Below are positions 1,493 through 43,556 of a stretch of DNA of 44,106 nt, in pieces. The stretch is from an uncultured Gammaproteobacteria bacterium (GTDB taxonomy: Bacteria; Patescibacteriota; Patescibacteriia; UBA9934). The DNA lies in the NCBI GenBank assembly GCA_964499655.1, contig CAZCLT010000001.1, positions 1,647 through 45,752 of the forward strand, read 5' to 3'. The notes under the pieces are model-generated. The model searched no databases, had not been told where the DNA came from, and was given only the letters and a program-made list of their open reading frames with translations. Each line of letters starts with the position of its first letter. The first letter of the stretch is position 1. The position numbers and the translations under genes were made by a program.

Positions 1493-3088
1493 CTACCAAG
1501 TTGGATTACAATCAGTTTCTGCCCCATATTTATCCTTGCACTCCATGATACCGTAGTAAGAATCGTTATTGGAACAATTAGCCACCGCCGAATCGGAAGC
1601 GGCGTATACCAGAGCAGCGGCGGCAATACACGGTCCGGTAGCTAGACCCATCGACGCTAAAGCAGCAGTTCCACAAAATGTCAGCAGGGCCGTACCAGTC
1701 AACATTTCTTTTTCAATAGTGAAGACCTGACAACTGCCGCCAGGTGGCGCTAACCCACACGGATCAGCTTCGCAAACCGTGTTGAGCAACGGGAAGGCTT
1801 CGCTAGTTTGTAAATCATCAACTTCGTTGTTGTAAATCAGACTATTCCCAGCCAACTTGGCCCAGACGTTGTCATACATGCGACAACCCATGCTGTCGCC
1901 AGCATAGGCGTCAGACAACAACAAGACACAATCCAAATTCGTGCTGTCCGAATTCGCAGGATAAACCAACTCAGCGCAGGAATCACCCACCGTGACTTCA
2001 GTCAGCGCGGTATCGTAAAACTCGCAGTAATAATGATTGGCATCGGTTGGGAACGGATCGGTGTAAAGTAAATTACCGCAGGTTGTCCGCGTCGGTGGCG
2101 GTGCATCAGGATTGGGCTGATAATCAATTAAAGCATCGTTATAAGAATCGCTACAGCTAACGCAAGCATAGCCGCCCGGCGCCGAAGCCACGCTCATGCA
2201 AGTAGCGACACCATCACTACAAGTTGAGTAAATGCACGATTGACCGGCGGTGATCGTTGACCCAGCCGCCGCTGAATCTTCAGGAATCGAAGCGACGACA
2301 CCGGTATTGCCACAAGTCGTGTCGGCACCAGTTTGCGTGATGATGACCCCAGCCGCGGCCATCGTTTCGCAAGTCGAATTAGGATCAAGGTAAACCGTTT
2401 GACGAATCTGCGGCGTGCGTAATTTATTCAGCGTTACCAAATCCGGGTCGATCAAATTCAAAATGGCGTAAGTGAACATCAATAAAATCATGCCGATGAC
2501 CGCGTTCTTAATGCGCTCCTTCGCTTTGGTAATTTTACCGCCATCGCCACGGGCCAAAGCATATTGCAAACCACCGATCATGATCATCACAATAGCTACA
2601 AGCGCGGCCGCCGGAATCAACCAGTTGTAAACCACGTTGATGTAGGTTGGAAAATCAGCTGCCTCCGTCATGTCCGTATTAGTGGTCAAATCACGAATCG
2701 CCACGCCCAAAGTGACCGGTGGCTGGGGCGCGTAACAGAAACCCTCACCAGGAATACACGATGTCTTCTGACCGCCCCAATCATATTCTAGTCCCGCGGT
2801 GTCTAGAGCCGACGAAACCTGAGTCGTGCATTCGTAGCTCGTCCAACACAACTGATTATTTTCCGGCCGTGAAGTTTCTTGCGTGTCGGTGTAACAGCCA
2901 AGCAAAGAATCACCGCTCTCTTTGCAACTGGTCTGGCAAGCCGCGACCGTTTCCTTAGAACCAATTTCCACTGCCCCGCCAGTTGTTCGGCAAAAACAGT
3001 CACAAGCCGTGCTGGTTGATGTTTGGGCCCAAACCGCCGACGGAACCAACAGTAAAACAAATGAAAAAATAATAACCAGACGTTTCAT
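1493..3088 (-). CDS. Large secreted Cys-rich protein with a central TrbC/VirB2-like (T4SS-pilin-type) two-TM module
   Basis: Signal peptide MKRLVIIFSFVLLLVPSAVWA and 30 Cys by my count. The core VYNWLIPAAALVAIVMIMIGG...AKERIKNAVIGMILLMFTYAILNLI resembles the T4SS-pilin domain seen in CPR proteins. There is a further C-terminal hydrophobic segment. I moved the start from the track's 3106 to ATG 3088, which has a TACAAT box 8 nt upstream. Confidence 0.6.
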   Translation of the reverse strand: MKRLVIIFSFVLLLVPSAVWAQTSTSTACDCFCRTTGGAVEIGSKETVAACQTSCKESGDSLLGCYTDTQETSRPENNQLCWTSYECTTQVSSALDTAGLEYDWGGQKTSCIPGEGFCYAPQPPVTLGVAIRDLTTNTDMTEAADFPTYINVVYNWLIPAAALVAIVMIMIGGLQYALARGDGGKITKAKERIKNAVIGMILLMFTYAILNLIDPDLVTLNKLRTPQIRQTVYLDPNSTCETMAAAGVIITQTGADTTCGNTGVVASIPEDSAAAGSTITAGQSCIYSTCSDGVATCMSVASAPGGYACVSCSDSYNDALIDYQPNPDAPPPTRTTCGNLLYTDPFPTDANHYYCEFYDTALTEVTVGDSCAELVYPANSDSTNLDCVLLLSDAYAGDSMGCRMYDNVWAKLAGNSLIYNNEVDDLQTSEAFPLLNTVCEADPCGLAPPGGSCQVFTIEKEMLTGTALLTFCGTAALASMGLATGPCIAAAALVYAASDSAVANCSNNDSYYGIMECKDKYGAETDCNPTW

Positions 3089-3096
3089 ACGCAGAT

Positions 3097-3102
3097 ATTG
3101 TA
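3097..3102 (-). promoter_or_regulatory. -10 box (TACAAT) 8 nt upstream of the Cys-rich protein ATG; leaderless-type
   Basis: Reverse complement of 3089-3102 is TACAATATCTGCGT followed by ATG. No SD. Confidence 0.4.
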
Positions 3103-3119
3103 TCATCGTGCTATGATGA

Positions 3120-3373: not shown

Positions 3374-5184
3374 TGTCGATCAAAAACAAATTTTCAAAAT
3401 TCTTCGGCCCTGGTCGCGCGAAACGCGCCGACTCGTCTCTTGCCGTCTCGCAGGTAATGTCCGCGCGTAAAATGCGCAAATTGCCGACGATCACCCAGCT
3501 ACGCCACTTACCAGAACTGCTTTCGCCGATTGAAAAAAAGATCGCCTTGGTCGGTCTTGGCTTACTCTTAATCGGAGCCGTACTACTTGGTACCCGGTTA
3601 TGGAACGCTGGTCGCAACATTCTGCCCGACGTTGGCGGTGAATACACCGAAGGCTTGGTCGGCGCGCCACAATTAATCAACCCGATCTATGCCATTAGTT
3701 CAGACGTGGACATGGATTTAGAACGGTTGATCTTTAGCGGCCTAATGAAATACGACCCAGCTCAAGGCCTAATCACTGATTTGGCGGAGAGTTACCAAAT
3801 TTCGGATGATCACAAAATTTATACTTTCACTCTGCGCGAAGACGCCCGTTGGCAAGACGGTTCCCCGGTTCTAGCCAGCGATGTCCTATTCACGATCAGC
3901 GCAATTCAAAACCGCGAGTACCGTTCGCCGTTGTTCGTGAGCTGGAGCGGCGTGCAAGCCGAACAGATCGATGATCGAACAATTCGCTTTACTTTATCCG
4001 AACCGTTCGCGCCTTTCCTCTCGCTCAACACAGTTGGTCTGTTGCCAGCGCATATTTGGCAAGATGTTAATCCAGCCAACGCTCAGCTAACCGAGCTCAA
4101 TAAAAAGCCAATTGGTTCTGGCCCATACGAATTCGAAAAACTCGCCAAAGACGCTAAAGGAACCATCAAATCTTACACTCTAAAGCGAAATGCCGATTAT
4201 TACGGCGGCACTGCCTACATCGAACGCCTGCACTTCAAATTCTACGGCGACAATAACGAAGCTTTAGTTGCGCTTAAAAACCGCCAAGTGGAAGGTTTGG
4301 GATTTGTGCCACTCGACGAAACTACTTCGCTGAGCCACGACCGTGATTTACAGATCATCTACCCGTCATTGCCCCAGTACACAGCCATTTTCTTCAATTC
4401 CAAACGCCAACCAAACCTCACTGACGCGCTAGTGCGTGAAGCTTTGACTTTGGCCACGGACAAAAACACTATCATCCAAAAAGCACTTTACGGACACGGC
4501 CAACCGATTAACTCATTCATTTTGCCAGGCGCGATTGGTTACTACCCAGAAATAAAAACAATCAATTTTGATTTAGCTGGCGCTCAAGCCAAATTAGACG
4601 CGGCCGGCTGGACAGTGCCTGAGGGTGGCACCATCCGCAAAAAGGGAGAGGCTTCACTCTCTTTAGAATTAGTGACTTTAGATGCTTCAGAATTGGTAGC
4701 CGCGGCCAATGAACTGCGATCGCAGTGGGCACAGGCCGGCGTGGAACTAAACGTCAAAATTGTACCAGCTGCCCAATTCCAAAACGAAATTCTAAAAAAT
4801 CGATCGTACGATTTAGTACTTTCGGGCGAACTTTACGGCATCGATACCGATCCCTACGCCTTCTGGCATTCTTCGCAGGCTACCTACCCCGGACTCAACC
4901 TGGCGCAATACGCCAATCGCAAATCCGATGAAGCGATTGAGAAGGCTCGCTCAACCACCAACACCGATGAACGCGCCACGGCCTACAAAGAACTGCAAGA
5001 TCAGGTTGGTGAATCGCTTTCGGCTATCTTCCTCTATCAACCAAACTATTCGTACGTCATTACCAAAAAGGTACAGAACGTGAACATCACACAGGTTGTG
5101 GTGCCGGCCGACCGTTTCGCTAATGTGAACACTTGGTACCTGAAGACTAAAAAAGTGTTCAAAACCTCAGAAACCGCCCAGTAA
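3373..5184 (+). CDS. ABC transporter substrate-binding protein, family 5 (peptide/nickel type), membrane-anchored
   Basis: 603 aa with an N-terminal TM anchor. The body resembles OppA/DppA-type SBPs (YTFTLREDARWQDGSPV..., GSGPYEF). Confidence 0.75.
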   Translation: MSIKNKFSKFFGPGRAKRADSSLAVSQVMSARKMRKLPTITQLRHLPELLSPIEKKIALVGLGLLLIGAVLLGTRLWNAGRNILPDVGGEYTEGLVGAPQLINPIYAISSDVDMDLERLIFSGLMKYDPAQGLITDLAESYQISDDHKIYTFTLREDARWQDGSPVLASDVLFTISAIQNREYRSPLFVSWSGVQAEQIDDRTIRFTLSEPFAPFLSLNTVGLLPAHIWQDVNPANAQLTELNKKPIGSGPYEFEKLAKDAKGTIKSYTLKRNADYYGGTAYIERLHFKFYGDNNEALVALKNRQVEGLGFVPLDETTSLSHDRDLQIIYPSLPQYTAIFFNSKRQPNLTDALVREALTLATDKNTIIQKALYGHGQPINSFILPGAIGYYPEIKTINFDLAGAQAKLDAAGWTVPEGGTIRKKGEASLSLELVTLDASELVAAANELRSQWAQAGVELNVKIVPAAQFQNEILKNRSYDLVLSGELYGIDTDPYAFWHSSQATYPGLNLAQYANRKSDEAIEKARSTTNTDERATAYKELQDQVGESLSAIFLYQPNYSYVITKKVQNVNITQVVVPADRFANVNTWYLKTKKVFKTSETAQ

Positions 5185-7306: not shown

Positions 7307-7333
7307 ACGAGGGACAAAATCCCTCGTTTTGTT
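7307..7333 (+). terminator. Intrinsic terminator after rnj
   Basis: ACGAGGGA-caaaa-TCCCTCGT followed by TTTTGTT. Confidence 0.8.
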
Positions 7334-7338
7334 ATACT
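7330..7338 (+). promoter_or_regulatory. Extended -10 (TGtTATACT) 7 nt upstream of the trpS ATG; leaderless-type
   Basis: TATACT at 7333-7338, ATG at 7346, no SD between them. Confidence 0.45.
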
Positions 7339-7345
7339 GACGGAT

Positions 7346-8326
7346 ATGCGTGTTTTAACCGGCATCCAACCTACTAACATCCTGCACCTCGGCAACTTGT
7401 TCGGCGCGCTTAAGCCAGCTGTGGCTATGCAAGGCGAGCATGAATTGCACATGATGATCGCTGATTATCATGCGATTACCGTGCCGCAGGATCCAGACAC
7501 ACTCCACGACAACATTTTGTTCGTCGCGGCCGCTTATTTGGCCGCCGGCATTGATCCGAAAAAGACGATCATTTTCCAGCAGTCGCAAGTGCCGGCCCAC
7601 ACCGAACTGGCCTGGATCATGCAGACGCAAACCCGGATCGGCGAAGCGGAGCGAATGACCCAGTTCAAGGATAAATCCGGTGGCAAAGCCGAAAAAGTTT
7701 CCGTTGGCTTGTTCACCTACCCAATGCTGATGGCCGCGGATATTTTACTTTACGATACCCAAGCCGTACCGGTGGGCGCCGACCAGAAACAACACGTCGA
7801 ATTAACTCGCGATCTAGCCGAACGCTTCAACAAAGAATACGGTGCCACCTTCACCCTGCCCGAGCCGCTGATTAGAGCGCATGGCGCCCGAATCAAATCG
7901 CTAACCGAGCCGGAAAAAAAGATGAGCAAGAGCTCGCCCAATGCCAAAAGCTATCTTTCAATCATGGACGACGCTGATCTGATTGCCAAGAAAATTCGCT
8001 CAGCCGTAACCGATTCCGAGCCGGGCATTACCGTGGATGATCGTCGCGAGGGACTCAAAAATCTGTTGACCTTGATGAGTCTGGTCACTGGCGAAACCCT
8101 GCCAGATATCGCCGCTCGGTACGCTACTGGCGGCATGAAAAACCTCAAAGACGATTTGGCTGAAGCGGTAATCATTTACCTCAAACCGCTCCAAGCCGAA
8201 ATCACCGGTTGGCTCGAAAATCAGGCCGAACTCAAGGAAATCATCAAAATCGGCTCTGGGGCCGCCGCCGAAATTGCCGACGCTAAAATGGCCCTAATCC
8301 GCTCTAGAATCGGGGTTAAAATCTAG
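7346..8326 (+). CDS. trpS: Tryptophan--tRNA ligase
   Basis: 326 aa. N-terminus GIQPTNILHLGNLFGA (HIGH-type), KMSKS present, class Ic length. Confidence 0.92.
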   Translation: MRVLTGIQPTNILHLGNLFGALKPAVAMQGEHELHMMIADYHAITVPQDPDTLHDNILFVAAAYLAAGIDPKKTIIFQQSQVPAHTELAWIMQTQTRIGEAERMTQFKDKSGGKAEKVSVGLFTYPMLMAADILLYDTQAVPVGADQKQHVELTRDLAERFNKEYGATFTLPEPLIRAHGARIKSLTEPEKKMSKSSPNAKSYLSIMDDADLIAKKIRSAVTDSEPGITVDDRREGLKNLLTLMSLVTGETLPDIAARYATGGMKNLKDDLAEAVIIYLKPLQAEITGWLENQAELKEIIKIGSGAAAEIADAKMALIRSRIGVKI

Positions 8327-8332
8327 TTTGCA

Positions 8333-8361
8333 TTGACATAATTGAAAAAGTCACATACTAT
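8333..8361 (+). promoter_or_regulatory. Near-consensus sigma70-type promoter (TTGACA-17-TACTAT) driving the high-GC cassette
   Basis: TTGACA 8333-8338, exactly 17 nt of spacer, TACTAT 8356-8361. The composition shifts to high G+C at 8362. Confidence 0.5.
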
Positions 8362-8440
8362 CCCGGCGTCACCCACTTTGGGGCGACCGGCAATTTTGCC
8401 GTCCTGTTCAACAGTCCGCAGTCCTGATCGGAGTCCACCA

Positions 8441-9325
8441 GTGTCCCTTTCGTCCGAAACCGCAATCCGCCCCGCCACCACCACCTCGTCCGCCACCGGT
8501 CGTCCCCCGACCACGGACTCCTCGCCCGGCTACAAGCCCGAGGTCAACGCCGCGCTCATGCGGCGCCGCGACAAGCTCGTCGAGATCATCCGCAACGACC
8601 TCAAGGAATGCTCGTCCCGGTCCATCCAGGGTAGCCTCTACCTGCTGCTCATCGCGGTCACCATGCGCTTCACCAACACCCTCAAGCGCCTGGCCGAGTT
8701 CCGCGACCTGTACGGCCTGATCAAGGGCTGCGAGATCGACAGCGTCAAGAAGTTCGCCACGGCCCTGCCGACGGACGTGACGCTCGACGAGGTGATCGAC
8801 GACGACACCAAGTCGGCCATCGAGCTGGCCAAGATGCTCGGCAAGGTCGCCCAGCTGCGCTCCCTGGTCGCGAAGACCGACGCGGGCAACCTCGAGTTCT
8901 ACGACCGGCTCCGGGGCGAGATCGAAGCGGGCAAGATCAACTCCTTCGGGGCGCTCTGCGACCGGCTGCCGACGTTCATCGTCGACCTGGACGACGACAT
9001 GCGCCGCGCCCGCAACCACTTCCGCGATGAGCGCGATGCCCAACGCACCGTGATCATCAACTTCCAGACCAAGGCGAACGCCGACGTGAAGCAGGACATC
9101 AGCTTCACCACCTTCGGCACCGTCAAGAACGCCATCCTGCGCGTGCTGCGTCAGATGATCGGTGACTTCGCCGAGCCGGCGCTGATCCCCGCCTGGCAGC
9201 AGCTGCGCAAGAAGTGCAACAACAACGAGTACACCAGCATCGGCTCCTTCCTCGCCGACGTGCCCGAGCAGTTGCGCCACAAGGCCAACCAGCTGACCGC
9301 CGCGCCGCCGATGGACAACAAGTAG
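8441..9325 (+). CDS. Orphan protein (294 aa) encoded in compositionally foreign, G/C-ending codons; function unknown
   Basis: The GTG start at 8441 follows GGAG (8430-8433) by 7 nt. The G/C third-position bias begins at this codon and is absent from 8342-8440, so the track's TTG start at 8342 is unlikely. The protein has an N-terminal S/T/P-rich tail and then a predicted helical body. I recognise no motif. Confidence 0.6.
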   Translation: MSLSSETAIRPATTTSSATGRPPTTDSSPGYKPEVNAALMRRRDKLVEIIRNDLKECSSRSIQGSLYLLLIAVTMRFTNTLKRLAEFRDLYGLIKGCEIDSVKKFATALPTDVTLDEVIDDDTKSAIELAKMLGKVAQLRSLVAKTDAGNLEFYDRLRGEIEAGKINSFGALCDRLPTFIVDLDDDMRRARNHFRDERDAQRTVIINFQTKANADVKQDISFTTFGTVKNAILRVLRQMIGDFAEPALIPAWQQLRKKCNNNEYTSIGSFLADVPEQLRHKANQLTAAPPMDNK

Positions 9326-9334
9326 CGCCTCTTT

Positions 9335-9380
9335 CCCCTGTCCTCCACCGTAACCTGGTGGCCACGGGGGCTCTTTTTTT
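9335..9380 (+). terminator. Intrinsic terminator of the high-GC cassette
   Basis: CCCCTGT...CCACC-gtaacct-GGTGG...ACGGGGG forms an interrupted hairpin, followed by CTCTTTTTTT. Confidence 0.6.
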
Positions 9381-9391
9381 ATCAATCACGA

Positions 9392-9420
9392 TTGACATTT
9401 CAGTGATTTTTTGTTAATAT
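9392..9420 (+). promoter_or_regulatory. Promoter of rnpB (TTGACA-17-TAATAT)
   Basis: TTGACA 9392-9397, 17-nt spacer, TAATAT 9415-9420. The RNase P RNA P1 helix starts about 10 nt downstream. Confidence 0.6.
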
Positions 9421-9430
9421 GCCCACGCTT

Positions 9431-9822
9431 AGAAAACTAGATGACTGCTGGATATTAGCCTTTACGGGTGGGTATTCAGAGGAAAGTCCGAACACCCTTG
9501 AGCCAGCAATGGCTCATGACAAAGAACATCGCTAACGGCGATCGAGTGATATCTATAAACTTAGGGAAAGTGCCACAGAGACAATACTAGTTCTCCGTCT
9601 CTCGAGAATGGAGAATGAAAAGTGAAAAGTGTCGCGGTGTCCGTAGCCAGCTCAGCTGGCACCGGGCTACGCGGCTCGCTCCATGGCAACATGGAAGCGT
9701 GGTAAACCCGTTCTGGTGCAAGAGCAAATTTGGTAGCTCGCATGAGTCGGCTAGCAATAGCCGAACTAGAGAGATAGTCGTCACCTCGCAAGAGGATACA
9801 AAATTCGGCTTACCGGTTTTCT
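9431..9822 (+). ncRNA. rnpB: RNase P RNA, bacterial type A
   Basis: Universal motifs are present: GAGGAAAGTCCG (9479-9490), GGGAAAGTGCCACAGAGA, GGTAAACCC and ACAAAATTCGGCTTAC (9798-9813). P1 pairs AGAAAAC (9431-9437) with GTTTTCT (9816-9822). Confidence 0.88.
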
Positions 9823-9829
9823 GAGCAAC

Positions 9830-9860
9830 AAAAAATTCGTCCCTGCGACGAGTTTTTTGT
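9830..9860 (+). terminator. Intrinsic terminator after rnpB
   Basis: AAAAAATTCGTC-cctgc-GACGAGTTTTTT hairpin with a T-run. Confidence 0.75.
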
Positions 9861-9866
9861 TATACT
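9858..9866 (+). promoter_or_regulatory. Extended -10 (TGtTATACT) 8 nt upstream of ATG 9875; leaderless-type
   Basis: TATACT at 9861-9866 and ATG at 9875. The track's TTG start at 9857 lies inside this promoter. Confidence 0.45.
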
Positions 9867-9874
9867 GGCGCCAT

Positions 9875-11275
9875 ATGAAACGGGCTGATTTATTTTTTGC
9901 TGGACTTTTGGTGCCATTGGATTATTTAACACTGTTGGGAGCAGCGGCCGCGGCGTATGGCCTACGCTTTTCACCGTTTTTCAAGAACTTGCGAGCGATC
10001 ATTTTTGATCTCAACTTTGACGATTACATGCAAACCGTGGCCTTGGCTGCACTGGTTTGGTTACTGATTTTTGCCTTGTCTGGCCTGTACGCCTTCCGCC
10101 CCCACCGCTTAGCCGTGGAGATCACCCGTATCATCTTGGCCTGTTCCACTGGCATCGCGGCGATACTTGCCATTGCCTTCTTCTCGCGCGAACTGTTCGA
10201 ATCGCGTTTCATCTTATTGGCCGTTTGGGTGCTGACGATTGTCTTCGTGACCATCGAGCGCCTACTGGTTCGCGGGCTACAACGTTCACTGCGCCAGTTC
10301 GGCTATGGCCTGAAGCACGTGGTGATTATCGGCAAAACCGATGCCGGCAATACCCTGCACAATTACTTTGAAAAAAATCCTCGCCACGGTTTTGCCATGG
10401 CTGGCCACTTCGCGCACTTTAACGAAGACATTGCCAAAAGCATCCTGAGCCTCAAGAAAAAAGATCGCGCTGACCTGTTGGTCTTTGCCAACCCTAACGC
10501 CGAAATCAAAGAAATTAAGGAAGCGAAAACTTTTACCGACATTGAACATCTTTCGTTCTTCTACTCGGCGGAAATCTTCCCAGCCGCCGGCGTTCAGCCG
10601 ATTATTCACACTCTGGCTGGCCAACCAGTGATCGAAGTGCCCAAAACACCGCTGGACGGTTGGGGCGCGATTTATAAACGCCTGTTCGATATTGTCGGCT
10701 CGCTCTTCTTGATCATTCTGTCGTCACCGATCCAGCTCTTAACGGCCATCGCCCTATTCATCGAACAACCCGGCAACGTCTTCTTCTTCCATGAACGCGT
10801 GGGCCAGGGCGGACAAAAATATCAGCACCTAAAGTTCCGATCGATGGTTCGCGATGCTCATAAATTCCGATTTGACCCTGAATTTCTCAAGCAGTACGGC
10901 AATGAACGCCAAGGCGGACCGCTTTTCAAATTGGCACATGATCCACGCATCACCAAAGTCGGCGCCTTGATTCGTAAGCTCTCCATCGATGAAATTCCCG
11001 AGTTCTACATGGTACTCGTCGGCCGGATGAGTCTGGTCGGTCCGCGCCCGCATTTGCCTGGCGAGGTGGCTAATTATCTGCCCGATCAACGCCGCGTGCT
11101 CACCATCAAACCCGGCATCACCGGCATGGCCCAAGTTTCCGGCCGCGCCGATCTAACGTTCGACGAAGAAGTCCGGCTCGACATGTTCTACATCGAAAAC
11201 TGGAACCCCTGGCTCGACATCGTGATTCTACTCAAAACCCCGTTGGTCGTGTTCTTCAAAAAAGGTGCCTACTAA
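9875..11275 (+). CDS. Polyprenyl-phosphate glycosyl-1-phosphate transferase (bacterial sugar transferase, WbaP/CpsE-like)
   Basis: N-terminal TM bundle. The C-terminal domain reads KRLFDIVGSLFLIILSSPI...HLKFRSM...PLFKLAHDPRITKVGALIRKLSIDEIPEF...MSLVGPRP. Confidence 0.85.
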   Translation: MKRADLFFAGLLVPLDYLTLLGAAAAAYGLRFSPFFKNLRAIIFDLNFDDYMQTVALAALVWLLIFALSGLYAFRPHRLAVEITRIILACSTGIAAILAIAFFSRELFESRFILLAVWVLTIVFVTIERLLVRGLQRSLRQFGYGLKHVVIIGKTDAGNTLHNYFEKNPRHGFAMAGHFAHFNEDIAKSILSLKKKDRADLLVFANPNAEIKEIKEAKTFTDIEHLSFFYSAEIFPAAGVQPIIHTLAGQPVIEVPKTPLDGWGAIYKRLFDIVGSLFLIILSSPIQLLTAIALFIEQPGNVFFFHERVGQGGQKYQHLKFRSMVRDAHKFRFDPEFLKQYGNERQGGPLFKLAHDPRITKVGALIRKLSIDEIPEFYMVLVGRMSLVGPRPHLPGEVANYLPDQRRVLTIKPGITGMAQVSGRADLTFDEEVRLDMFYIENWNPWLDIVILLKTPLVVFFKKGAY

Positions 11276-23327: not shown

Positions 23328-23612
23328 CTGTAAGAGTTCCTTCCAACCCGGAGTATCGGCCATGGGCGGCGGATAATCTAGCGATCACCTAAAGGGGACA
23401 AAACGCCTATGTCGGCGCCCCATAAATCTGCGATCGAGCGAACAAGAAGCTTTGATCCATCGATCGTACGATAACCATCGACCAACCCGGTCGGTGCACT
23501 GCCCCGAAGCAAGAAAGATGCCAACTTCTACTCCGACTACAGGATATACCACCTGAACTACCCGTTCACCTTGACCGGTCCCTAGAGCGCCCTCGCTCTT
23601 GGCACCGGTCTC
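23328..23612 (+). ncRNA. Candidate unannotated RNA of about 285 nt (orphan transcription unit); class unknown
   Basis: It is bracketed by the promoter above and a plus-oriented intrinsic terminator. The longest plus-strand ATG ORF is 21 codons. The segment contains several local hairpins. Confidence 0.35.
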
Positions 23613-23622
23613 ATTTTATTTT
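23573..23622 (+). terminator. Intrinsic terminator, plus-strand oriented
   Basis: Outer stem GACCGGT/ACCGGTC and inner stem AGAGCG-ccct-CGCTCT, followed by TCATTTTATTTT. On the minus strand no T-run follows the hairpin. Confidence 0.6.
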
Positions 23623-24359
23623 AGGGGCTTCGAGCAATTCCAAGCGGCGTTAAAGAGAACGGTAAATGTGTCGGCAAAAACTTTATTTTCAATAATCACC
23701 ACTTCGATGTCGCCAAGCAGATTGACGAAAGCAATGTGGTTTTTGTAAATCCAAATGTTACCCTCAAAGTCACCAAATGCCTGATCGAGCTGACGTAGCT
23801 CAGCTTGAGGATTTGGATTTTTGACCGTCCCTCTGACTAAAGATTTTAGTTTTAGATTCTTAAACCCTTCAATTTTTCGTAGTTCTAAAATCAACTTTTC
23901 TTCCAAAAAATTATAAACCACGTCTAAGTTAGAAACCTCTAAAATCTCGTTGGTCTTAACCGAACCGACATCACGGAACAAAGCGCGCACGCCTTCTTCG
24001 CCAGTGTAAAAACGAACTCGGGGATGCACACCGCCTTTCATCACTCGCAGTTCCGGCAGCATACGATCCAATGAGCCGAGCTGAATCTTCATGCGCTCCA
24101 TGCGGCCATGGAAATAATCCTCCAGCTTCTCCGGATCTTCAGCACTGAAGACGGTTTTCTTACCTTTTTCAAAAGTGCTCACCAATCCTTTTTCTTGCAA
24201 ATGGCTGATGATTTCGTAAGCAGCCGTGCGACTGATTTCAGCACGCTTGGCCACGTTTTGCACGCTCTCGGGCCCGAGTTCGAGCATCGCCAAATAAACA
24301 CGCGCTTCAGTTTCCGAAAGACCAAGTTCAATAAGTGTCTTTTTGATATTTAGGGACAT
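23616..24359 (-). CDS. TrmB-family transcriptional regulator
   Basis: N-terminal wHTH LGLSETEARVYLAMLELGPESVQNVAKRAEISRTAAYEIISHLQEKGLV. 247 aa. Confidence 0.75.
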   Translation of the reverse strand: MSLNIKKTLIELGLSETEARVYLAMLELGPESVQNVAKRAEISRTAAYEIISHLQEKGLVSTFEKGKKTVFSAEDPEKLEDYFHGRMERMKIQLGSLDRMLPELRVMKGGVHPRVRFYTGEEGVRALFRDVGSVKTNEILEVSNLDVVYNFLEEKLILELRKIEGFKNLKLKSLVRGTVKNPNPQAELRQLDQAFGDFEGNIWIYKNHIAFVNLLGDIEVVIIENKVFADTFTVLFNAAWNCSKPLK

Positions 24360-24370
24360 AGTTGGAAAAT

Positions 24371-24395
24371 TAGCTTGTAGGAAGTAGCTTGTAGG
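24371..24395. promoter_or_regulatory. Direct repeat TAGCTTGTAGG-aag-TAGCTTGTAGG upstream of the TrmB-family gene; candidate operator
   Basis: Two perfect 11-mers at 24371-24381 and 24385-24395, 12-36 nt upstream of the ATG at 24359. Confidence 0.4.
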
Positions 24396-24411
24396 TTATA
24401 AATTACCCACA

Positions 24412-40606: not shown

Positions 40607-42007
40607 ATGAAACGCAAATTATTGTTGGCTGGGATCGCTACCTCTATTGGCCTGTTAGCCCTGCCACATCTCACCCTGGCTCACCACTTGGCTAACGACG
40701 ACCTAGAAGTCCGCTTGATTGATTCGGCTGGACAAAGCACAACTTTACTTAGCCCGTTTGATGTGAAGTACCGTGGCGATGGCTCGATCGCGACCGGTGA
40801 TCTTGGGATGGACGGTACCGCGGAAATTGTCGTCGGTACTGGCCACGGTCTGGAACCAAAAGTTAAAATCTATCGCCAGGACGGCTCGCTCATCTCTGAA
40901 TTCCTCGCCTACGAATCCACGCTCGATAGTGGCGTGAATGTAACACTATGTGATCTGACCGGTGACGGTGTGAACGAAATTGTCACGGCGCCGAAATATC
41001 GTGGCGCACCACTGGTAAAAGTCTTTGCCACCGATGGTTCGGTGATTCACTCCGGCTTCTATGCTTATAGTGAATCTTTCCGTGGTGGTGTCAGTATTGC
41101 TTGCGGTGATCTGAACGGCGATGGAGAAAATGAAATCGTCACCGGTGCTGGTATTAGTGGCGGCCCGCACATCAAAACATTTAACAGTGCCGGTACGCAA
41201 CTCAACGAAACGTTCACTGGCTCGGCGAGTGAAAACATGGGCGTGAACGTAGCCGTTGGTGATTTAGACAATGATGATCAATTCGAAATCATCGCCACGC
41301 GCGCGGGGATCGGTGACCCAACCATCACAACCTTCGAAATCAAAAACGGAAAAATTACCTTCGTCGGATCGTTGCCAGGCCCCGCCAATTACACCAATGG
41401 CCTACAAGTGTTGGCTGCTGATGTTGATGGTGACGGTGAAGATGAAATCGGAATCACGACCAACGGCCAGACCACGCCAACGATCACTTTTTACGAAACC
41501 ACCGGCGGTATTGCTCGCGAAATTAAACCAGACGCCAGCGATACTGTTTCCGGAATCACCGCCACCTCACTGCTTAAAGATGGCCAAATCCAGCTGATTT
41601 CCATGATTACGGCCCCGCTGACCGAAAATCAACCTAGCCAGTACATCGAAGTCGATGTCAGCGAACAAACACTCTACGCCTACGAAAATTCAGCACTAGT
41701 TAAATCACACCTGGTCTCTACCGGCTCGTATAGCTTCCCCACGCCCTACGCCACAACCACCATCAGTCGAAAATTATTATGGCATGATTATTCTTGGAGC
41801 TACGGCGCCGGCAATCCCAATAATTATTCGTTACCCAACGTGCAATACAATGTGCAGTTTCGTCCGCACATGTATTTGCACTCAGCTTACTGGCACAATA
41901 ATTTTGGTCACCGCATGAGTCACGGATGTATCAATCAATCTCTCGCTGACTCTGGTTGGATTTTCAACTGGGCAACCACTAGCACTGTTGTTACCGTACA
42001 AGAGTAA
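40607..42007 (+). CDS. Secreted FG-GAP/VCBS-repeat protein fused to a C-terminal L,D-transpeptidase (YkuD) domain
   Basis: Signal peptide MKRKLLLAGIATSIGLLALPHLTLA. Repeated GDLxGDGxxEIV units. C-terminus HSAYWHNNFGHRMSHGCIN (His...SHGC catalytic motif). Confidence 0.75.
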   Translation: MKRKLLLAGIATSIGLLALPHLTLAHHLANDDLEVRLIDSAGQSTTLLSPFDVKYRGDGSIATGDLGMDGTAEIVVGTGHGLEPKVKIYRQDGSLISEFLAYESTLDSGVNVTLCDLTGDGVNEIVTAPKYRGAPLVKVFATDGSVIHSGFYAYSESFRGGVSIACGDLNGDGENEIVTGAGISGGPHIKTFNSAGTQLNETFTGSASENMGVNVAVGDLDNDDQFEIIATRAGIGDPTITTFEIKNGKITFVGSLPGPANYTNGLQVLAADVDGDGEDEIGITTNGQTTPTITFYETTGGIAREIKPDASDTVSGITATSLLKDGQIQLISMITAPLTENQPSQYIEVDVSEQTLYAYENSALVKSHLVSTGSYSFPTPYATTTISRKLLWHDYSWSYGAGNPNNYSLPNVQYNVQFRPHMYLHSAYWHNNFGHRMSHGCINQSLADSGWIFNWATTSTVVTVQE

Positions 42008-42073
42008 ATATTTTCTCTTGTTGATAACTTTCTTGCAAAATATTTTCACGCGAAGCAATTACATGTATACTTT

Positions 42074-42129
42074 TATATAACGTTACAAATTATTCTTCGA
42101 AATATTTATTTCGAGTGTAACGATATATA
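42074..42129 (+). promoter_or_regulatory. Long imperfect AT-rich inverted repeat upstream of the small basic ORF
   Basis: TATATAACGTTACA (42074-42087) pairs with TGTAACGATATATA (42116-42129) with one mismatch. It encloses an inner stem CTTCGAAAT/ATTTCGAG. Confidence 0.4.
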
Positions 42130-42155
42130 AAAAGAAAGGGGGTGGATTAATCATT

Positions 42156-42269
42156 ATGCCAGCCAAGAAACGCAAAGTCGCCAAGAAGGCGAAACGACCA
42201 GCGAAGCGAAAAGTCGCTAAGCGAAAGGCCGCTCCTAAGAAGCGCAAAGCCGCTAAGAAGCGCGCTTAA
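42156..42269 (+). CDS. Small ultra-basic Lys/Arg/Ala-rich protein (37 aa)
   Basis: Below the length cutoff of the ORF track. Sequence MPAKKRKVAKKAKRPAKRKVAKRKAAPKKRKAAKKRA. A strong SD (AAAGGGGGTGGA) lies upstream and a strong terminator follows the stop. Confidence 0.45.
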   Translation: MPAKKRKVAKKAKRPAKRKVAKRKAAPKKRKAAKKRA

Positions 42270-42277
42270 TTACTTAG

Positions 42278-42318
42278 AAAAAATACTCTGCGAGAATTCG
42301 ACAGAGTATTTTTTTTAT
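42278..42318. terminator. Bidirectional intrinsic terminator
   Basis: AAAAAATACTCTG-(11 nt)-CAGAGTATTTTTT, between the small ORF (plus strand) and the EndoQ-like gene (minus strand). Confidence 0.85.
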
Positions 42319-43556
42319 TACACAAGTTTTTTATCGTCGAAGATTTTGACTTTGCCAAATACTCCGTCGTAACCTGGGCGAATATGCATTTCGCCAGCCC
42401 GGACCCGACGAAGTGCTTCGGCCACCGTCTCACCCGCTGCCGCCCTAACGTCTTCGATCGAAGAATCGAGTAAAATGTGGAATTCATTGCCGATTTGTTC
42501 GATCATCTGATCGTACATGCCCTGAACCTTCTTGCTAGCTGGTGAGGCCACGCCGTAGGCTTCGGCGAGAATTTGATCAAGTGGCACGATCGATTTATAT
42601 GGCACGTGGTCAGCTGGCAGTTCGTGAACATCGCGATCGGCTAGATCGGCCACGCGCGACATCACACCCACAGTCAATAGTTTCTGACACTTGGGACAAC
42701 GTCCACCGAGCTTCTTCGTTTGCTCGGGCGCGCACCAAAATTGGCAGGGCGCGTGACCATCTTGATGATACTTCCCTTCTTCGGGATAGAATTCAATCGT
42801 GTAGGCGAAGCGTGAAATGTCGCGCTCTTTGAAAATACGCACAAACTCATCAAACGAAAGTTCGCTCTCGGGAATTTCGAAGACGTTCGCCTCACGACCA
42901 AAGTTACGCGGACTGTGCGCGTCAGAATTCGAGATCAACATGATGTTGTCGAGAGCGGAGAGCGCACGATTCATCAGCGGATCACTACTCAGCCCGGTTT
43001 CGATGGCGTAAATGTACGGCGTCATCTCGCCGAAACATTCTTCAAGACTGTTGAATCCAGATTTGGAACCGAAAACGGAAAACCACGGCGTCCAAGCATG
43101 TGCTGGAATCAAAATAAATCGATCATCGATCGCTTTGAGTCGTTTATACAATTCCTCTGAGTCTAGTCCCAAGATCGGGCGGCCATCAGCTTTGATGTTA
43201 AAGCCATTTTCGACCAGCCAAGTATTCAGTTTTCCGACTGCTTCGATCGATGGCGCTAAAATAATATTATGAACTCGACGCGTCTGCCCGCCACGTTTGT
43301 AAATCTGTGAAACTTCGGTGGTGAGAATATAGCGCATTTCGCCATATAAACCCGAGCGTAATTTGTAGAGCCCGGGTTCGGCTTCGATAAGCTGACTCTG
43401 AATTTCTGCGAACCACTTGGGGTGGGTAAAATCAGCCGTGCCCAGAACATTGACGCCTTTTTTCTGGCACCACTTGGCATTATTCTCGAGCGTTAACTCC
43501 TTGGAACAGGCGCGAGAGTACGATGAGTGGAGGTGAAAATCAGCGATGATCCTCAT
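42318..43556 (-). CDS. PHP-domain endonuclease Q-like protein (TIGR00375-type)
   Basis: MRIIADFHLHSSYSRACSK..., AHAWTPWFSVFGSKSGFNSLEECFG, SNSDAHSP and the Zn-ribbon-like CAPE...CPKCQ. Confidence 0.65.
   Translation of the reverse strand: MRIIADFHLHSSYSRACSKELTLENNAKWCQKKGVNVLGTADFTHPKWFAEIQSQLIEAEPGLYKLRSGLYGEMRYILTTEVSQIYKRGGQTRRVHNIILAPSIEAVGKLNTWLVENGFNIKADGRPILGLDSEELYKRLKAIDDRFILIPAHAWTPWFSVFGSKSGFNSLEECFGEMTPYIYAIETGLSSDPLMNRALSALDNIMLISNSDAHSPRNFGREANVFEIPESELSFDEFVRIFKERDISRFAYTIEFYPEEGKYHQDGHAPCQFWCAPEQTKKLGGRCPKCQKLLTVGVMSRVADLADRDVHELPADHVPYKSIVPLDQILAEAYGVASPASKKVQGMYDQMIEQIGNEFHILLDSSIEDVRAAAGETVAEALRRVRAGEMHIRPGYDGVFGKVKIFDDKKLV

Follow-up and report, generated by a model that had tools for sequence, protein, structure and literature searches.

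The window analysed here, a 44,106-nucleotide (nt) stretch of contig CAZCLT010000001.1 (assembly GCA_964499655.1), carries between trpS and rnpB a single gene whose composition departs sharply from that of its surroundings, and this gene is the subject of the present report. Judged by trpS, whose closest counterparts in GTDB genomes come from Candidatus Uhrbacteria and further Patescibacteria, the host is a member of Candidatus Uhrbacteria within the candidate phyla radiation (CPR; Patescibacteria). The slot is bounded on its left by trpS (7346–8326; on the plus strand, as are all features of the locus described below unless stated otherwise; Pfam PF00579 tRNA-synt_1b, 1.3e-70), with a guanine-plus-cytosine (G+C) fraction at third codon positions (GC3) of 0.626, and on its right by rnpB (9392–9828), comprising a promoter (9392–9420) and the RNase P RNA (9429–9828; Rfam RF00010, 166.9 bits). 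Between these boundaries an open reading frame (ORF) of 294 codons occupies positions 8441–9325, beginning with GTG and ending at a TAG stop (9323–9325). The feature is real, natural and old, a resident and fast-evolving orphan gene of Uhrbacteria, and public records of its family are annotated as 'hypothetical protein' only.

The segment 8362–9380 has a G+C content of 64.7%, as compared with 50.9% in the remainder of the window, and in a scan by 400-nt bins only 8401–8800 (0.650) and 8801–9200 (0.655) exceed 0.60, the remaining 108 bins lying between 0.38 and 0.578. At the three codon positions of the ORF the G+C fractions (GC1, GC2 and GC3) are 0.58, 0.42 and 0.956, the last of these being compared with a mean of 0.576 (standard deviation 0.042, maximum 0.644) for the 36 other genes of the window, a difference corresponding to z = 9.1. 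Codons ending in A or T number 13 out of 294 and are rare across all amino acids; third positions are occupied by C at a frequency of 0.61 and by G at 0.35, A and T are depleted equally, and the coding strand is C-rich with a weak GC skew (−0.02 to −0.30). Runs of four or more A/T residues are absent from the 885-nt ORF, whereas the other genes have 69 per kb (minimum 31.7). The G+C-rich tract and the transcription unit share their extent: the tract starts no more than 7 nt after the −10 box and stops at the terminator, and the switch in composition falls at the identical base in every orthologous lineage. Both the sharp break that the initial annotation had placed between 8361/8362 and about 9380 and the near-exclusive use of G or C at third positions are borne out by the G+C values and the 400-nt scan, its tally of five exceptions among the first 39 codons and eight thereafter agreeing with the count of 13. 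When the discontinuity check on GC and GC3 that it had proposed was run, the outlier stood, and none of the 36 other genes in the window was found to share this codon style.

Upstream of the ORF lies a sigma-70-type promoter (8333–8361) composed of TTGACA (8333–8338), a 17-nt A/T-rich spacer and TACTAT (8356–8361), scoring 10/12 in a consensus scan, and both of its boxes are kept in the related loci L007, L002, L009, L089, L095 and L096, the spacer being variable. It is followed by a G+C-rich discriminator, CCCGGC (8362–8367), whose first four bases, CCCG, are invariant in all orthologous leaders and which lies between the −10 box and a transcription start that spacing would place at about position 8368. 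The 34 nt after the discriminator, GTCACCCACTTTGGGGCGAC CGGCAATTTTGCCG, form a 5′ leader element (8368–8401) with two small predicted hairpins (folding energy −15.5 kcal/mol, z = −2.7), hairpin 1 at 8368–8387 (GUC-A-CCC / GGG-C-GAC) and hairpin 2 at 8388–8401 (CGGCA / UGCCG), and across six lineages its conservation exceeds that of the coding sequence. Changes in the stem arms of L008, L009 and L095 are C-to-U transitions that retain G.U pairs, and such compatibility with G.U pairing fits RNA pairing rather than DNA pairing; the L002 leader contains mispairs in hairpin 1, and two-sided compensatory changes were not found among the lineages compared. With a start site about 7 nt past the −10 box, the first base of hairpin 1 would be the +1 position, the placement typical of 5′ stabilisers. 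The leader is single-copy in the window, an Rfam search of 8300–9420 returned nothing relevant even at E ≤ 10, and a scan of metagenome contigs with the leader pattern produced three chance matches only, all in high-G+C contigs.

The remainder of the 5′ untranslated region (UTR) consists of a variable part (8402–8429) that is not G+C-enriched and differs in sequence and length among lineages, and of a Shine-Dalgarno sequence GGAG (8430–8433) located 7 nt ahead of the start; all orthologues keep this GGAG at the same spacing, with GTG or TTG as start codon. Downstream of the stop codon an intrinsic terminator (9335–9380) is formed by a two-tier hairpin (9335–9370) and a U7 tract (9374–9380), with a predicted stability of −19.7 kcal/mol (z = −3.3). 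Its architecture is shared by L002, L007, L008 and L089, in which the inner-stem sequences differ yet pair. The unit fits tightly into its slot, with gaps of 6 nt from trpS and 11 nt to the rnpB promoter. All components recognised in the initial annotation, namely the TTGACA-17-TACTAT promoter, the 5′ UTR, GGAG, GTG, the 294-codon ORF and the terminator, are in place, and its description of a self-contained expression unit is supported by these predicted signals, which point to a monocistronic one.

Two observations concern the immediate surroundings of the leader. Judged by the segments 7311–7348 and 9861–9877, trpS and the sugar-transferase gene appear to be leaderless, their ATG codons lying 7–8 nt past a TATACT −10 box that directly follows the upstream terminator, whereas the ORF has a leader of approximately 73 nt and a Shine-Dalgarno sequence. 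In addition, the 3′ end of trpS (8266–8279) carries CGCCGAAATTGCCG, which is 86% complementary to hairpin 2 (CGGCAATTTTGCCG, 8388–8401); since this hairpin is palindromic, the complementarity is probably due to chance.

The ORF maintains its frame and length in the window, L007, L002, L008 and L089. An AlphaFold2 model of its product, built from four sequences only, has a mean predicted local distance difference test score (pLDDT) of 82 and contains 15 helices, preceded by a disordered Ser/Thr/Pro/Ala-rich tail (residues 1–30, 8441–8530; pLDDT <50). This tail contains the sequence TG(R/Q)P(P/M)TTD, which is kept in L002, L007, L008, L095 and L096 once these are translated from the shared GTG/TTG start. 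According to the model the product would consist of the disordered tail and three helical modules, each ending in the motif phi-x-S-phi-x-x-F-phi-x-x-L-P, and would be cytoplasmic-looking. The three occurrences are IDSVKKFATALP (residues 99–110, 8735–8770), which ends the module absent in L095; INSFGALCDRLP (residues 166–177, 8936–8971), which comprises invariant alignment columns, adjoins the most conserved block, NLEFYDRL, and is where hhalign places its alignment with the slot proteins from the more distant relatives L013, L010 and L012; and YTSIGSFLADVP (residues 264–275, 9230–9265), whose C-terminal module is matched by an extra tandem paralogue in L095. The motif, a pattern defined post hoc, occurs two to three times per orthologue versus about 0.01 expected from shuffled sequences, and the L010 and L013 slot proteins carry it too. 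In outline each module looks like a helix, a Leu-Pro turn and a basic helix.

The protein evolves 5–8 times faster than its neighbours, with nonsynonymous divergence (dN) between orthologues of 0.29–0.51 versus 0.05–0.09 for flanking genes, and change within the ORF is nearly equal at all three codon positions; the gene is probably hypervariable. When its dN is related to the synonymous divergence (dS) of the flanks, the resulting ratio of approximately 0.25 shows the protein to be under moderate constraint. Searches of Pfam, PHROGs, PADLOC and NCBIfam with the product gave no match above noise, a sequence search of the PDB gave no match (best E = 0.075), and Foldseek with the whole model found no fold match (best E = 0.9 in the PDB and 0.57 in BFVD, template-modelling score about 0.2). 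The statement in the initial annotation that the product has no recognisable motif therefore holds for the sequence, profile and Foldseek searches of these databases, and protein, fold and leader alike are undescribed.

A variant arrangement of the locus is found in L095 (3305–4322), where an ORF that has lost its first helical module in frame is followed by a second, 110-residue single-module paralogue. The latter (4065–4310) has its own TTGACT-17-TATTAT promoter and terminator, and is recognisably related to the L089 protein (tblastn E = 1.6e-9).

The gene occupies the trpS–rnpB slot in at least eight independent assemblies of diverged relatives, at 33–67% protein identity. Promoter, leader, ORF and terminator are found together in L001, L002–L006, L007, L089 and L095, which derive from different samples, with partial contexts available for L008, L009 and L096. 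The order trpS, ORF, rnpB, sugar transferase is observed in L002–L006, L089, L095 and L001; in L007 trpS is followed by the ORF, in L096 the end of trpS is followed by the leader and the ORF, in L009, whose contig ends early, trpS, the promoter, the leader and the first ORF codons are seen, and in L008 only the −10 box and leader precede the ORF. On the 3′ side of the slot rnpB was identified by Rfam in L001, L002, L010–L014 and L017, and is readable in L089. The family is small, comprising four members among 5.8 billion clustered proteins and three more obtained by a profile search of 1.84 billion representatives, and every member with visible context lies directly after trpS and behind the same promoter and leader. 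No relative beyond the slot was found in these two collections, in GTDB genomes, IMG/VR, GenBank phages or PLSDB plasmids, nor by a peptide-pattern scan of genome contigs, and P0006, the most divergent member, retrieved only itself when used as a protein query. The carriers seen are all genomes of 43–51% G+C. The window itself has an ordinary CPR gene content, including RNase J (encoded two genes upstream of the ORF), tRNA synthetases, glycosyltransferases, DUF4012, FemAB, RuvA, pentose-phosphate enzymes and a protein with a type IV secretion system (T4SS) pilin domain; the neighbours of the ORF are housekeeping or cell-envelope genes, and among the ORFs scanned (window 1493–33077) neither an integrase nor other mobility genes were found, nor were there flanking repeats.

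Identities to the window in L007, L002 and L089 are 93, 89 and 81% for trpS and 67, 58 and 33% for the ORF, and quartet site patterns comprise 49 sites for the same tree versus 24 and 26 for the alternatives; this parallel drop and the agreement of the quartets indicate vertical co-divergence. L001, a 3019-nt Logan assembly of SRR12113420, is identical to window positions 7706–10724 with 0 mismatches, and since it runs across the slot, both junctions are reproduced base for base and an assembly artefact, one of the explanations offered in the initial annotation, is excluded, all the more so given the other independent assemblies. An engineered or recoded cassette is likewise excluded by natural, diverged orthologues in the same slot. 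Nor is the cassette 'foreign': it is a resident of this slot in all relatives with visible context, the very comparison that had been proposed in order to see whether it is absent there, and no donor or mobile reservoir was found.

The silent-site anomaly is a property of the family as a whole. Orthologue GC3 is 0.86–0.96 in all cases, compared with 0.45–0.65 for the flanking genes of the orthologues and with 0.40–0.65 as background over eight or more lineages, and the bias is as strong at a genomic G+C of 43% as at 51%. Between the window and L002 the flanks are saturated, with dS of 1.36 for trpS and 1.8 for the GT4 gene, and at the four-fold degenerate sites of three flanking genes the strong/weak (S/W, that is G or C versus A or T) class is near randomised, with lambda 2.1 for the window and L002 and infinite for the window and L089. 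Over the same divergence the G+C fraction at four-fold sites (GC4) of the ORF stays at 0.92–0.94. Its silent sites have been far from static, since 50–72 of the approximately 71–108 third-position differences per orthologue pair are C↔G exchanges, and at four-fold sites occupied by G or C in each of the two sequences compared the C↔G difference is 0.34–0.47 in the ORF versus 0.29–0.31 in the flanks. A two-state calculation from the four-fold values indicates that neutral decay would have brought the ORF to about 0.78 since the split of the window and L002, and to flank level since the split from L089. The silent sites of the ORF have turned over for as long as those of its neighbours without accumulating A or T, so that an ongoing force is required: the extreme G/C content is actively maintained and is no scar of transfer, and it has been held for longer than the flanking genes took to randomise their own silent sites. 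Moreover, C and G interchange freely, so the constraint is on composition and not on particular codons or tRNAs. The very recent transfer envisaged in the initial annotation is thus excluded by an ORF that tracks the divergence of trpS, by saturated flanks, by C↔G turnover at or above that of the flanks and by the sustained GC4.

More distant Uhrbacteria provide a view of the slot beyond the range of recognisable orthology. L010–L013 (trpS identity 64–69%, 44–51% G+C) likewise hold a single orphan gene, rich in G+C, in the trpS–rnpB slot; its GC3 is 0.73–0.93, it has its own TTGACA promoter in all four, and a terminator was recognised in L011 and L012. By hhalign these genes resemble the window family weakly (probability 53% for L013, 28% for L010); however, since a trpS identity of 81% already corresponds to an ORF identity of about 33%, orthologues at the distance of L010–L013 would be expected to be unrecognisable. 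The simplest reading of these sequences, although not proven, is that this slot gene is the same gene diverged beyond recognition. The slot of L014 holds a 2.7-kb G+C-rich island, and that of L017, a genome of 33% G+C, a small unrelated ORF. In L016 (5017–7694), a 48% G+C Uhrbacterium with a genome GC3 of 0.52, trpS is followed by a bpMoxR AAA+ ATPase (Pfam PF20030, 7.5e-29; GC3 0.82) and by a second gene that is weakly vWA-like (VWA_CoxE, E = 0.072, below threshold; GC3 0.71); rnpB was not found in this 9-kb locus. The bpMoxR protein belongs to the MoxR-vWA conflict-type systems.

Direct evidence for recombination comes from a sister clade represented by three metagenome-assembled genomes (MAGs) and aligned over L012:4982–6180, L093:3826–4900 and L094:4850–5965 (alignment A4). 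RNase J and trpS are 100% identical among these three, with 0–0.2% difference at four-fold sites, and their slot gene has a GC3 of 0.92–0.93. In contrast to these flanks, the L094 slot protein is 81–84% identical to those of L012 and L093, which are 98% identical to each other over shared residues. In L094 a block of approximately 480 nt, diverged by about 25–30%, extends from 18 nt inside the leader to the middle of the gene, whose 3′ half is identical, and the differences between L012 and L094 are of all substitution types. In the L012 gene a unit of about 180 nt is present twice in tandem, the copies being near-identical, and L093 lacks one 156-nt repeat copy. The sister-clade slot gene has therefore undergone segmental replacement by a divergent G+C-rich allele and a change in repeat number, at a rate far above that of point mutation in the flanks.

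Our tentative preference, held with somewhat less than even confidence, is that the resident, vertically inherited single-gene unit of the trpS–rnpB slot is a diversification locus whose silent-site G/C content is linked to recombination. A consensus sigma-70 promoter would drive a monocistronic messenger RNA (mRNA) that begins with two conserved hairpins and ends at a strong terminator; segmental recombination, of which the sister clade gives a direct view, would repeatedly swap divergent alleles or modules; and recombination would hold silent sites at G/C, either through GC-biased repair of heteroduplex mismatches or through a preference for G+C-rich DNA as substrate. That the gene acts in conflict or recognition, for instance in interaction with phages or partner cells, is a guess made because its evolution is rapid and mosaic. 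The sister-clade mosaics, the module changes of L095 and the G+C-rich yet unrelated contents of the slot elsewhere all favour this reading, and it has two precedents. The vls cassettes have 49.1% G+C versus 28.6% for the chromosome in all Lyme Borrelia, from which their authors infer a strong maintaining pressure, linked to gene conversion (PMC11499132), and recombining bacterial genes in general have a higher GC3, achieved via non-optimal G/C-ending codons and mimicking selection (Lassalle et al. 2015, PMC4450053).

Several results weigh against a recombination-linked diversification locus. If recombination enriched the region at the DNA level some spill-over would be expected, whereas the variable part of the 5′ UTR has a G+C of 0.33–0.54 across lineages, the variable promoter spacers are A/T-rich (0.24–0.47), and neither trpS nor the sugar-transferase gene has a GC3 gradient toward the slot; enrichment that leaves flanks, spacer and UTR untouched disfavours a purely regional bias. 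The GC3 excess, +0.35 to +0.5, looks far larger than that reported for bacterial biased gene conversion. The 44-kb window contains no silent copies of the ORF that could serve as donors. The mosaics themselves were seen in the sister clade, whose slot gene is related to that of the window only by position and weakly in sequence (hhalign probability 5%). Within the window clade clustering of conflicting sites gave p = 0.02–0.54, sliding-window identity gave no clear signal of mosaicism either way, and the strain comparison (L001 identical to the window, L002–L006 differing at one base) showed no mosaics. Finally, no hydrophobic signal sequence or lipobox is found at the N-terminus, as judged from sequence and model with no dedicated predictor, so that the product is not surface-antigen-like.

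The more ambitious form of the diversification reading, which strikes us as unlikely, is that of a dedicated CPR diversification locus, in which a single 'expression-site' gene in a fixed slot would be continually rebuilt by segmental recombination from the DNA of relatives or from unlinked copies. Its G/C-saturated silent sites would then be part of the mechanism, either as a recombination-proficient substrate or as the footprint of very strong biased conversion.

The closest known parallel is the vls system of Borrelia burgdorferi sensu lato, which is the one precedent, and a partial one, for the compositional behaviour described here. In both systems G+C is held far above that of the genome in all related lineages and helical structure is kept despite turnover of sequence; in vls, segments are replaced in an expression site with a constant promoter and 5′ end, and in the sister clade the mosaic of L012 and L094 begins 18 nt into the leader. 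The two systems differ, however, in several defining respects. There is no array of silent cassettes in the 44-kb window, and the extra paralogue of L095 has a promoter of its own; the vls coding strand is G-rich with a skew of about +0.5 and G-runs, unlike the C-rich and weakly skewed ORF, whose excess is centred on third codon positions; and the vls product is a surface lipoprotein of a vertebrate pathogen, unlike a product with neither signal peptide nor lipobox in a free-living or episymbiotic environmental CPR bacterium. With GC-biased gene conversion as described in bacteria the locus has in common a raised GC3 in a gene with evidence of recombination, the differences lying in the magnitude of the presumed bias, confined to one gene, and in its knife-edge boundaries, both of which appear to surpass by far what is reported for bacteria. 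A diversity-generating retroelement (DGR) would not deplete A and T equally nor generate the differences of all types observed between L012 and L094, and no repeat of the ORF in the window nor reverse transcriptase among the neighbours scanned was found; accordingly, adenine-specific, DGR-like decay was rejected on the equal depletion of A and T at third positions.

The strongest competitor, in our view possible though rather doubtful, is selection on the mRNA, whereby a G+C-rich transcript with no A/U tracts longer than 3 nt and with hairpins at its ends would be long-lived and resistant to RNases (J, Y, E or toxin-type), its product presumably being required in large amounts or under RNA-degrading stress. 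A recombination-linked cause is ranked slightly above it, and the two are not mutually exclusive. Selection on mRNA would explain why the tract coincides with the transcription unit while adjacent promoter spacers are A/T-rich, why the leader hairpins at the presumed +1 outconserve the coding sequence and tolerate G.U-compatible stem changes, and why A/T runs of four or more are lacking; the free interchange of C and G at four-fold sites fits a compositional constraint of this kind, and an RNase J gene lies close by. In predicted minimum free energy (MFE) the native sequence reaches −341 kcal/mol versus −262 ± 9 kcal/mol when recoded with resident codon usage, that is 79 kcal/mol stronger. The 5′-terminal stem-loops of the Escherichia coli ompA and Bacillus subtilis aprE and ermC leaders are known stabilisers, resembling the present leader in that a conserved hairpin would occupy the first nucleotide in a host encoding RNase J, and differing in that there is no sequence or Rfam relationship and stabilisation here is inferred. 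Yet structure is not above that of synonymous-codon shuffles that keep GC3 (z = −0.4 and −0.8), for which reason a specific RNA structure in the coding region was rejected. A/T runs number 80 observed versus 127 expected (0/2000 shuffles; ratio 1.00 for resident genes), but this ratio of 0.63 does not discriminate, as ordinary native genes of high-G+C genomes show avoidance as well (0.74), and A/T-run avoidance was set aside as a direct target of selection. The variable 5′ UTR is not G+C-rich, and the G+C-richness of the unrelated L014 and L016 slot genes and the strain-level mosaics are left unexplained. We know of no bacterial precedent for whole-gene recoding toward G/C in the interest of mRNA stability. 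Codon-level control, through which C/G-ending codons would tie translation to G34/C34 isoacceptor tRNAs, either as a regulatory mirror image of the Streptomyces TTA/bldA system or as a means of remaining translatable when U34 tRNAs are depleted, accords with a bias that is centred on third positions, absent from the variable UTR and felt by all amino acids. It is nevertheless very improbable, since C- and G-ending synonyms read by different tRNAs interchange freely between orthologues and the bias does not change between genomes of 43% and 51% G+C, which should have different tRNA pools and optimal codons (two tRNA genes are present in the window). We attach next to no probability to dual coding, in which a 325-codon antisense ORF (8408–9385, minus strand) would force G or C onto sense third positions. 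In the window, L007 and L002 no stop codon interrupts this frame anywhere in the gene, as follows from the avoidance of TTA, CTA and TCA codons, but it contains one or two stop codons in L008, L089, L010, L011 and L012, and its dN/dS of 0.70–0.91 is no lower than that of the sense frame. A consensus scan found no antisense promoter, and the sense protein is predicted to fold confidently. Broken in five lineages and with a dN/dS no better than sense, the antisense overlapping gene was rejected.

Import from outside, in its recurrent form, regards the slot as a hot spot whose content is replaced repeatedly from high-G+C donors, for example high-G+C Uhrbacteria. High-G+C relatives exist, as genomic G+C in the clade spans 33–64% (L017 to L015) and the native codon style of the high-G+C relatives matches that of the ORF. 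In L015 (MGDT01000004.1), a 64% G+C Uhrbacterium, housekeeping genes have GC1 of 0.63–0.64, GC2 of 0.37–0.39 and GC3 of 0.91–0.93, similar to the 0.58–0.68, 0.39–0.48 and 0.86–0.96 of the ORF family; an earlier argument against a high-G+C donor, based on a 'mid-GC' amino-acid composition, was withdrawn because GC1 and GC2 of L015 are the same. Recurrent import would also account for slot contents that differ among distant lineages and are G+C-rich in most (L016, L014), and for the segment replacement between L094 and L012. We consider it quite improbable even so, given that no relative of the ORF was found beyond the slot in the collections searched, that the carriers seen are all of 43–51% G+C, that its divergence follows that of trpS, that promoter and leader are conserved and of resident type with the switch at the same base in every lineage, and that flanking repeats are lacking, as are an integrase and other mobility genes among the ORFs scanned. 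Compositionally atypical acquired islets are reportedly described by the amelioration framework of Lawrence and Ochman. The locus resembles such islets in its sharp, gene-sized break in G+C and codon usage within a variable slot between core genes, and differs from them in that it is not patchy, being at the same site in all relatives seen, has no donor, mobility genes or flanking repeats, and remains unameliorated beside saturated flanks. For the three origins proposed in the initial annotation (a very recent single transfer, an engineered or recoded cassette, a chimeric assembly) nothing speaks but the compositional break as such and the complete set of expression signals; with junctions reproduced in an independent assembly and at least eight natural, diverged lineages with saturated flanks, their combined probability is close to nil.

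More widely, a compositional outlier is usually read as a recent transfer, a rule that fails for this old, syntenic and vertically inherited gene, in which approximately 95% of silent sites are held at G or C within genomes of 43–51% G+C. The locus is a natural test case for the cause of bacterial G+C content, whether selection at the RNA or DNA level or biased conversion, as it offers a single gene with sharp boundaries, unaffected neighbours as controls and several lineages as replicates. It also marks, in a CPR lineage without cultured members, a hypervariable orphan gene that is predicted to be strongly expressed and has a conserved leader. Like other CPR orphan genes it lacks homologues beyond a narrow clade and matches no domain or fold; to our knowledge, orphans are not normally marked by a maintained codon anomaly, by a leader that outconserves its coding sequence or by a fixed chromosomal slot, and our search of the literature on codon-usage outliers in CPR found nothing relevant. 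If the unit is indeed programmed for diversification, it would have no predecessor in the CPR radiation and would represent an intracellular, non-pathogen counterpart of antigenic variation, as well as by far the strongest known recombination-linked G+C enrichment in bacteria.

Some further features of the window and of related contigs are noted in passing. A 537-residue protein encoded on the minus strand (window 1493–3106), upstream of an SBP_bac_5 solute-binding protein, is the one with the T4SS pilin domain (PF18895, 1.3e-11), and may be relevant to cell–cell contact or DNA exchange in the CPR host. The lowest G+C values of the window are found at 23601–24400 (0.405) and 42001–42400 (0.38), the former patch covering a TrmB-family regulator gene (23616–24359) whose GC3 of 0.474 is the lowest of the 36 genes compared. 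Two of the related loci, L009 (CAYPRR010000124.1) and L014 (CAYHFQ010000012.1), come from MAGs titled 'uncultured Gammaproteobacteria bacterium' and display Uhrbacteria-type synteny of RNase J, trpS and rnpB; the trpS of L009 is 87% identical to that of the window and the leader is shared, and the two bins are probably mislabelled or contaminated.

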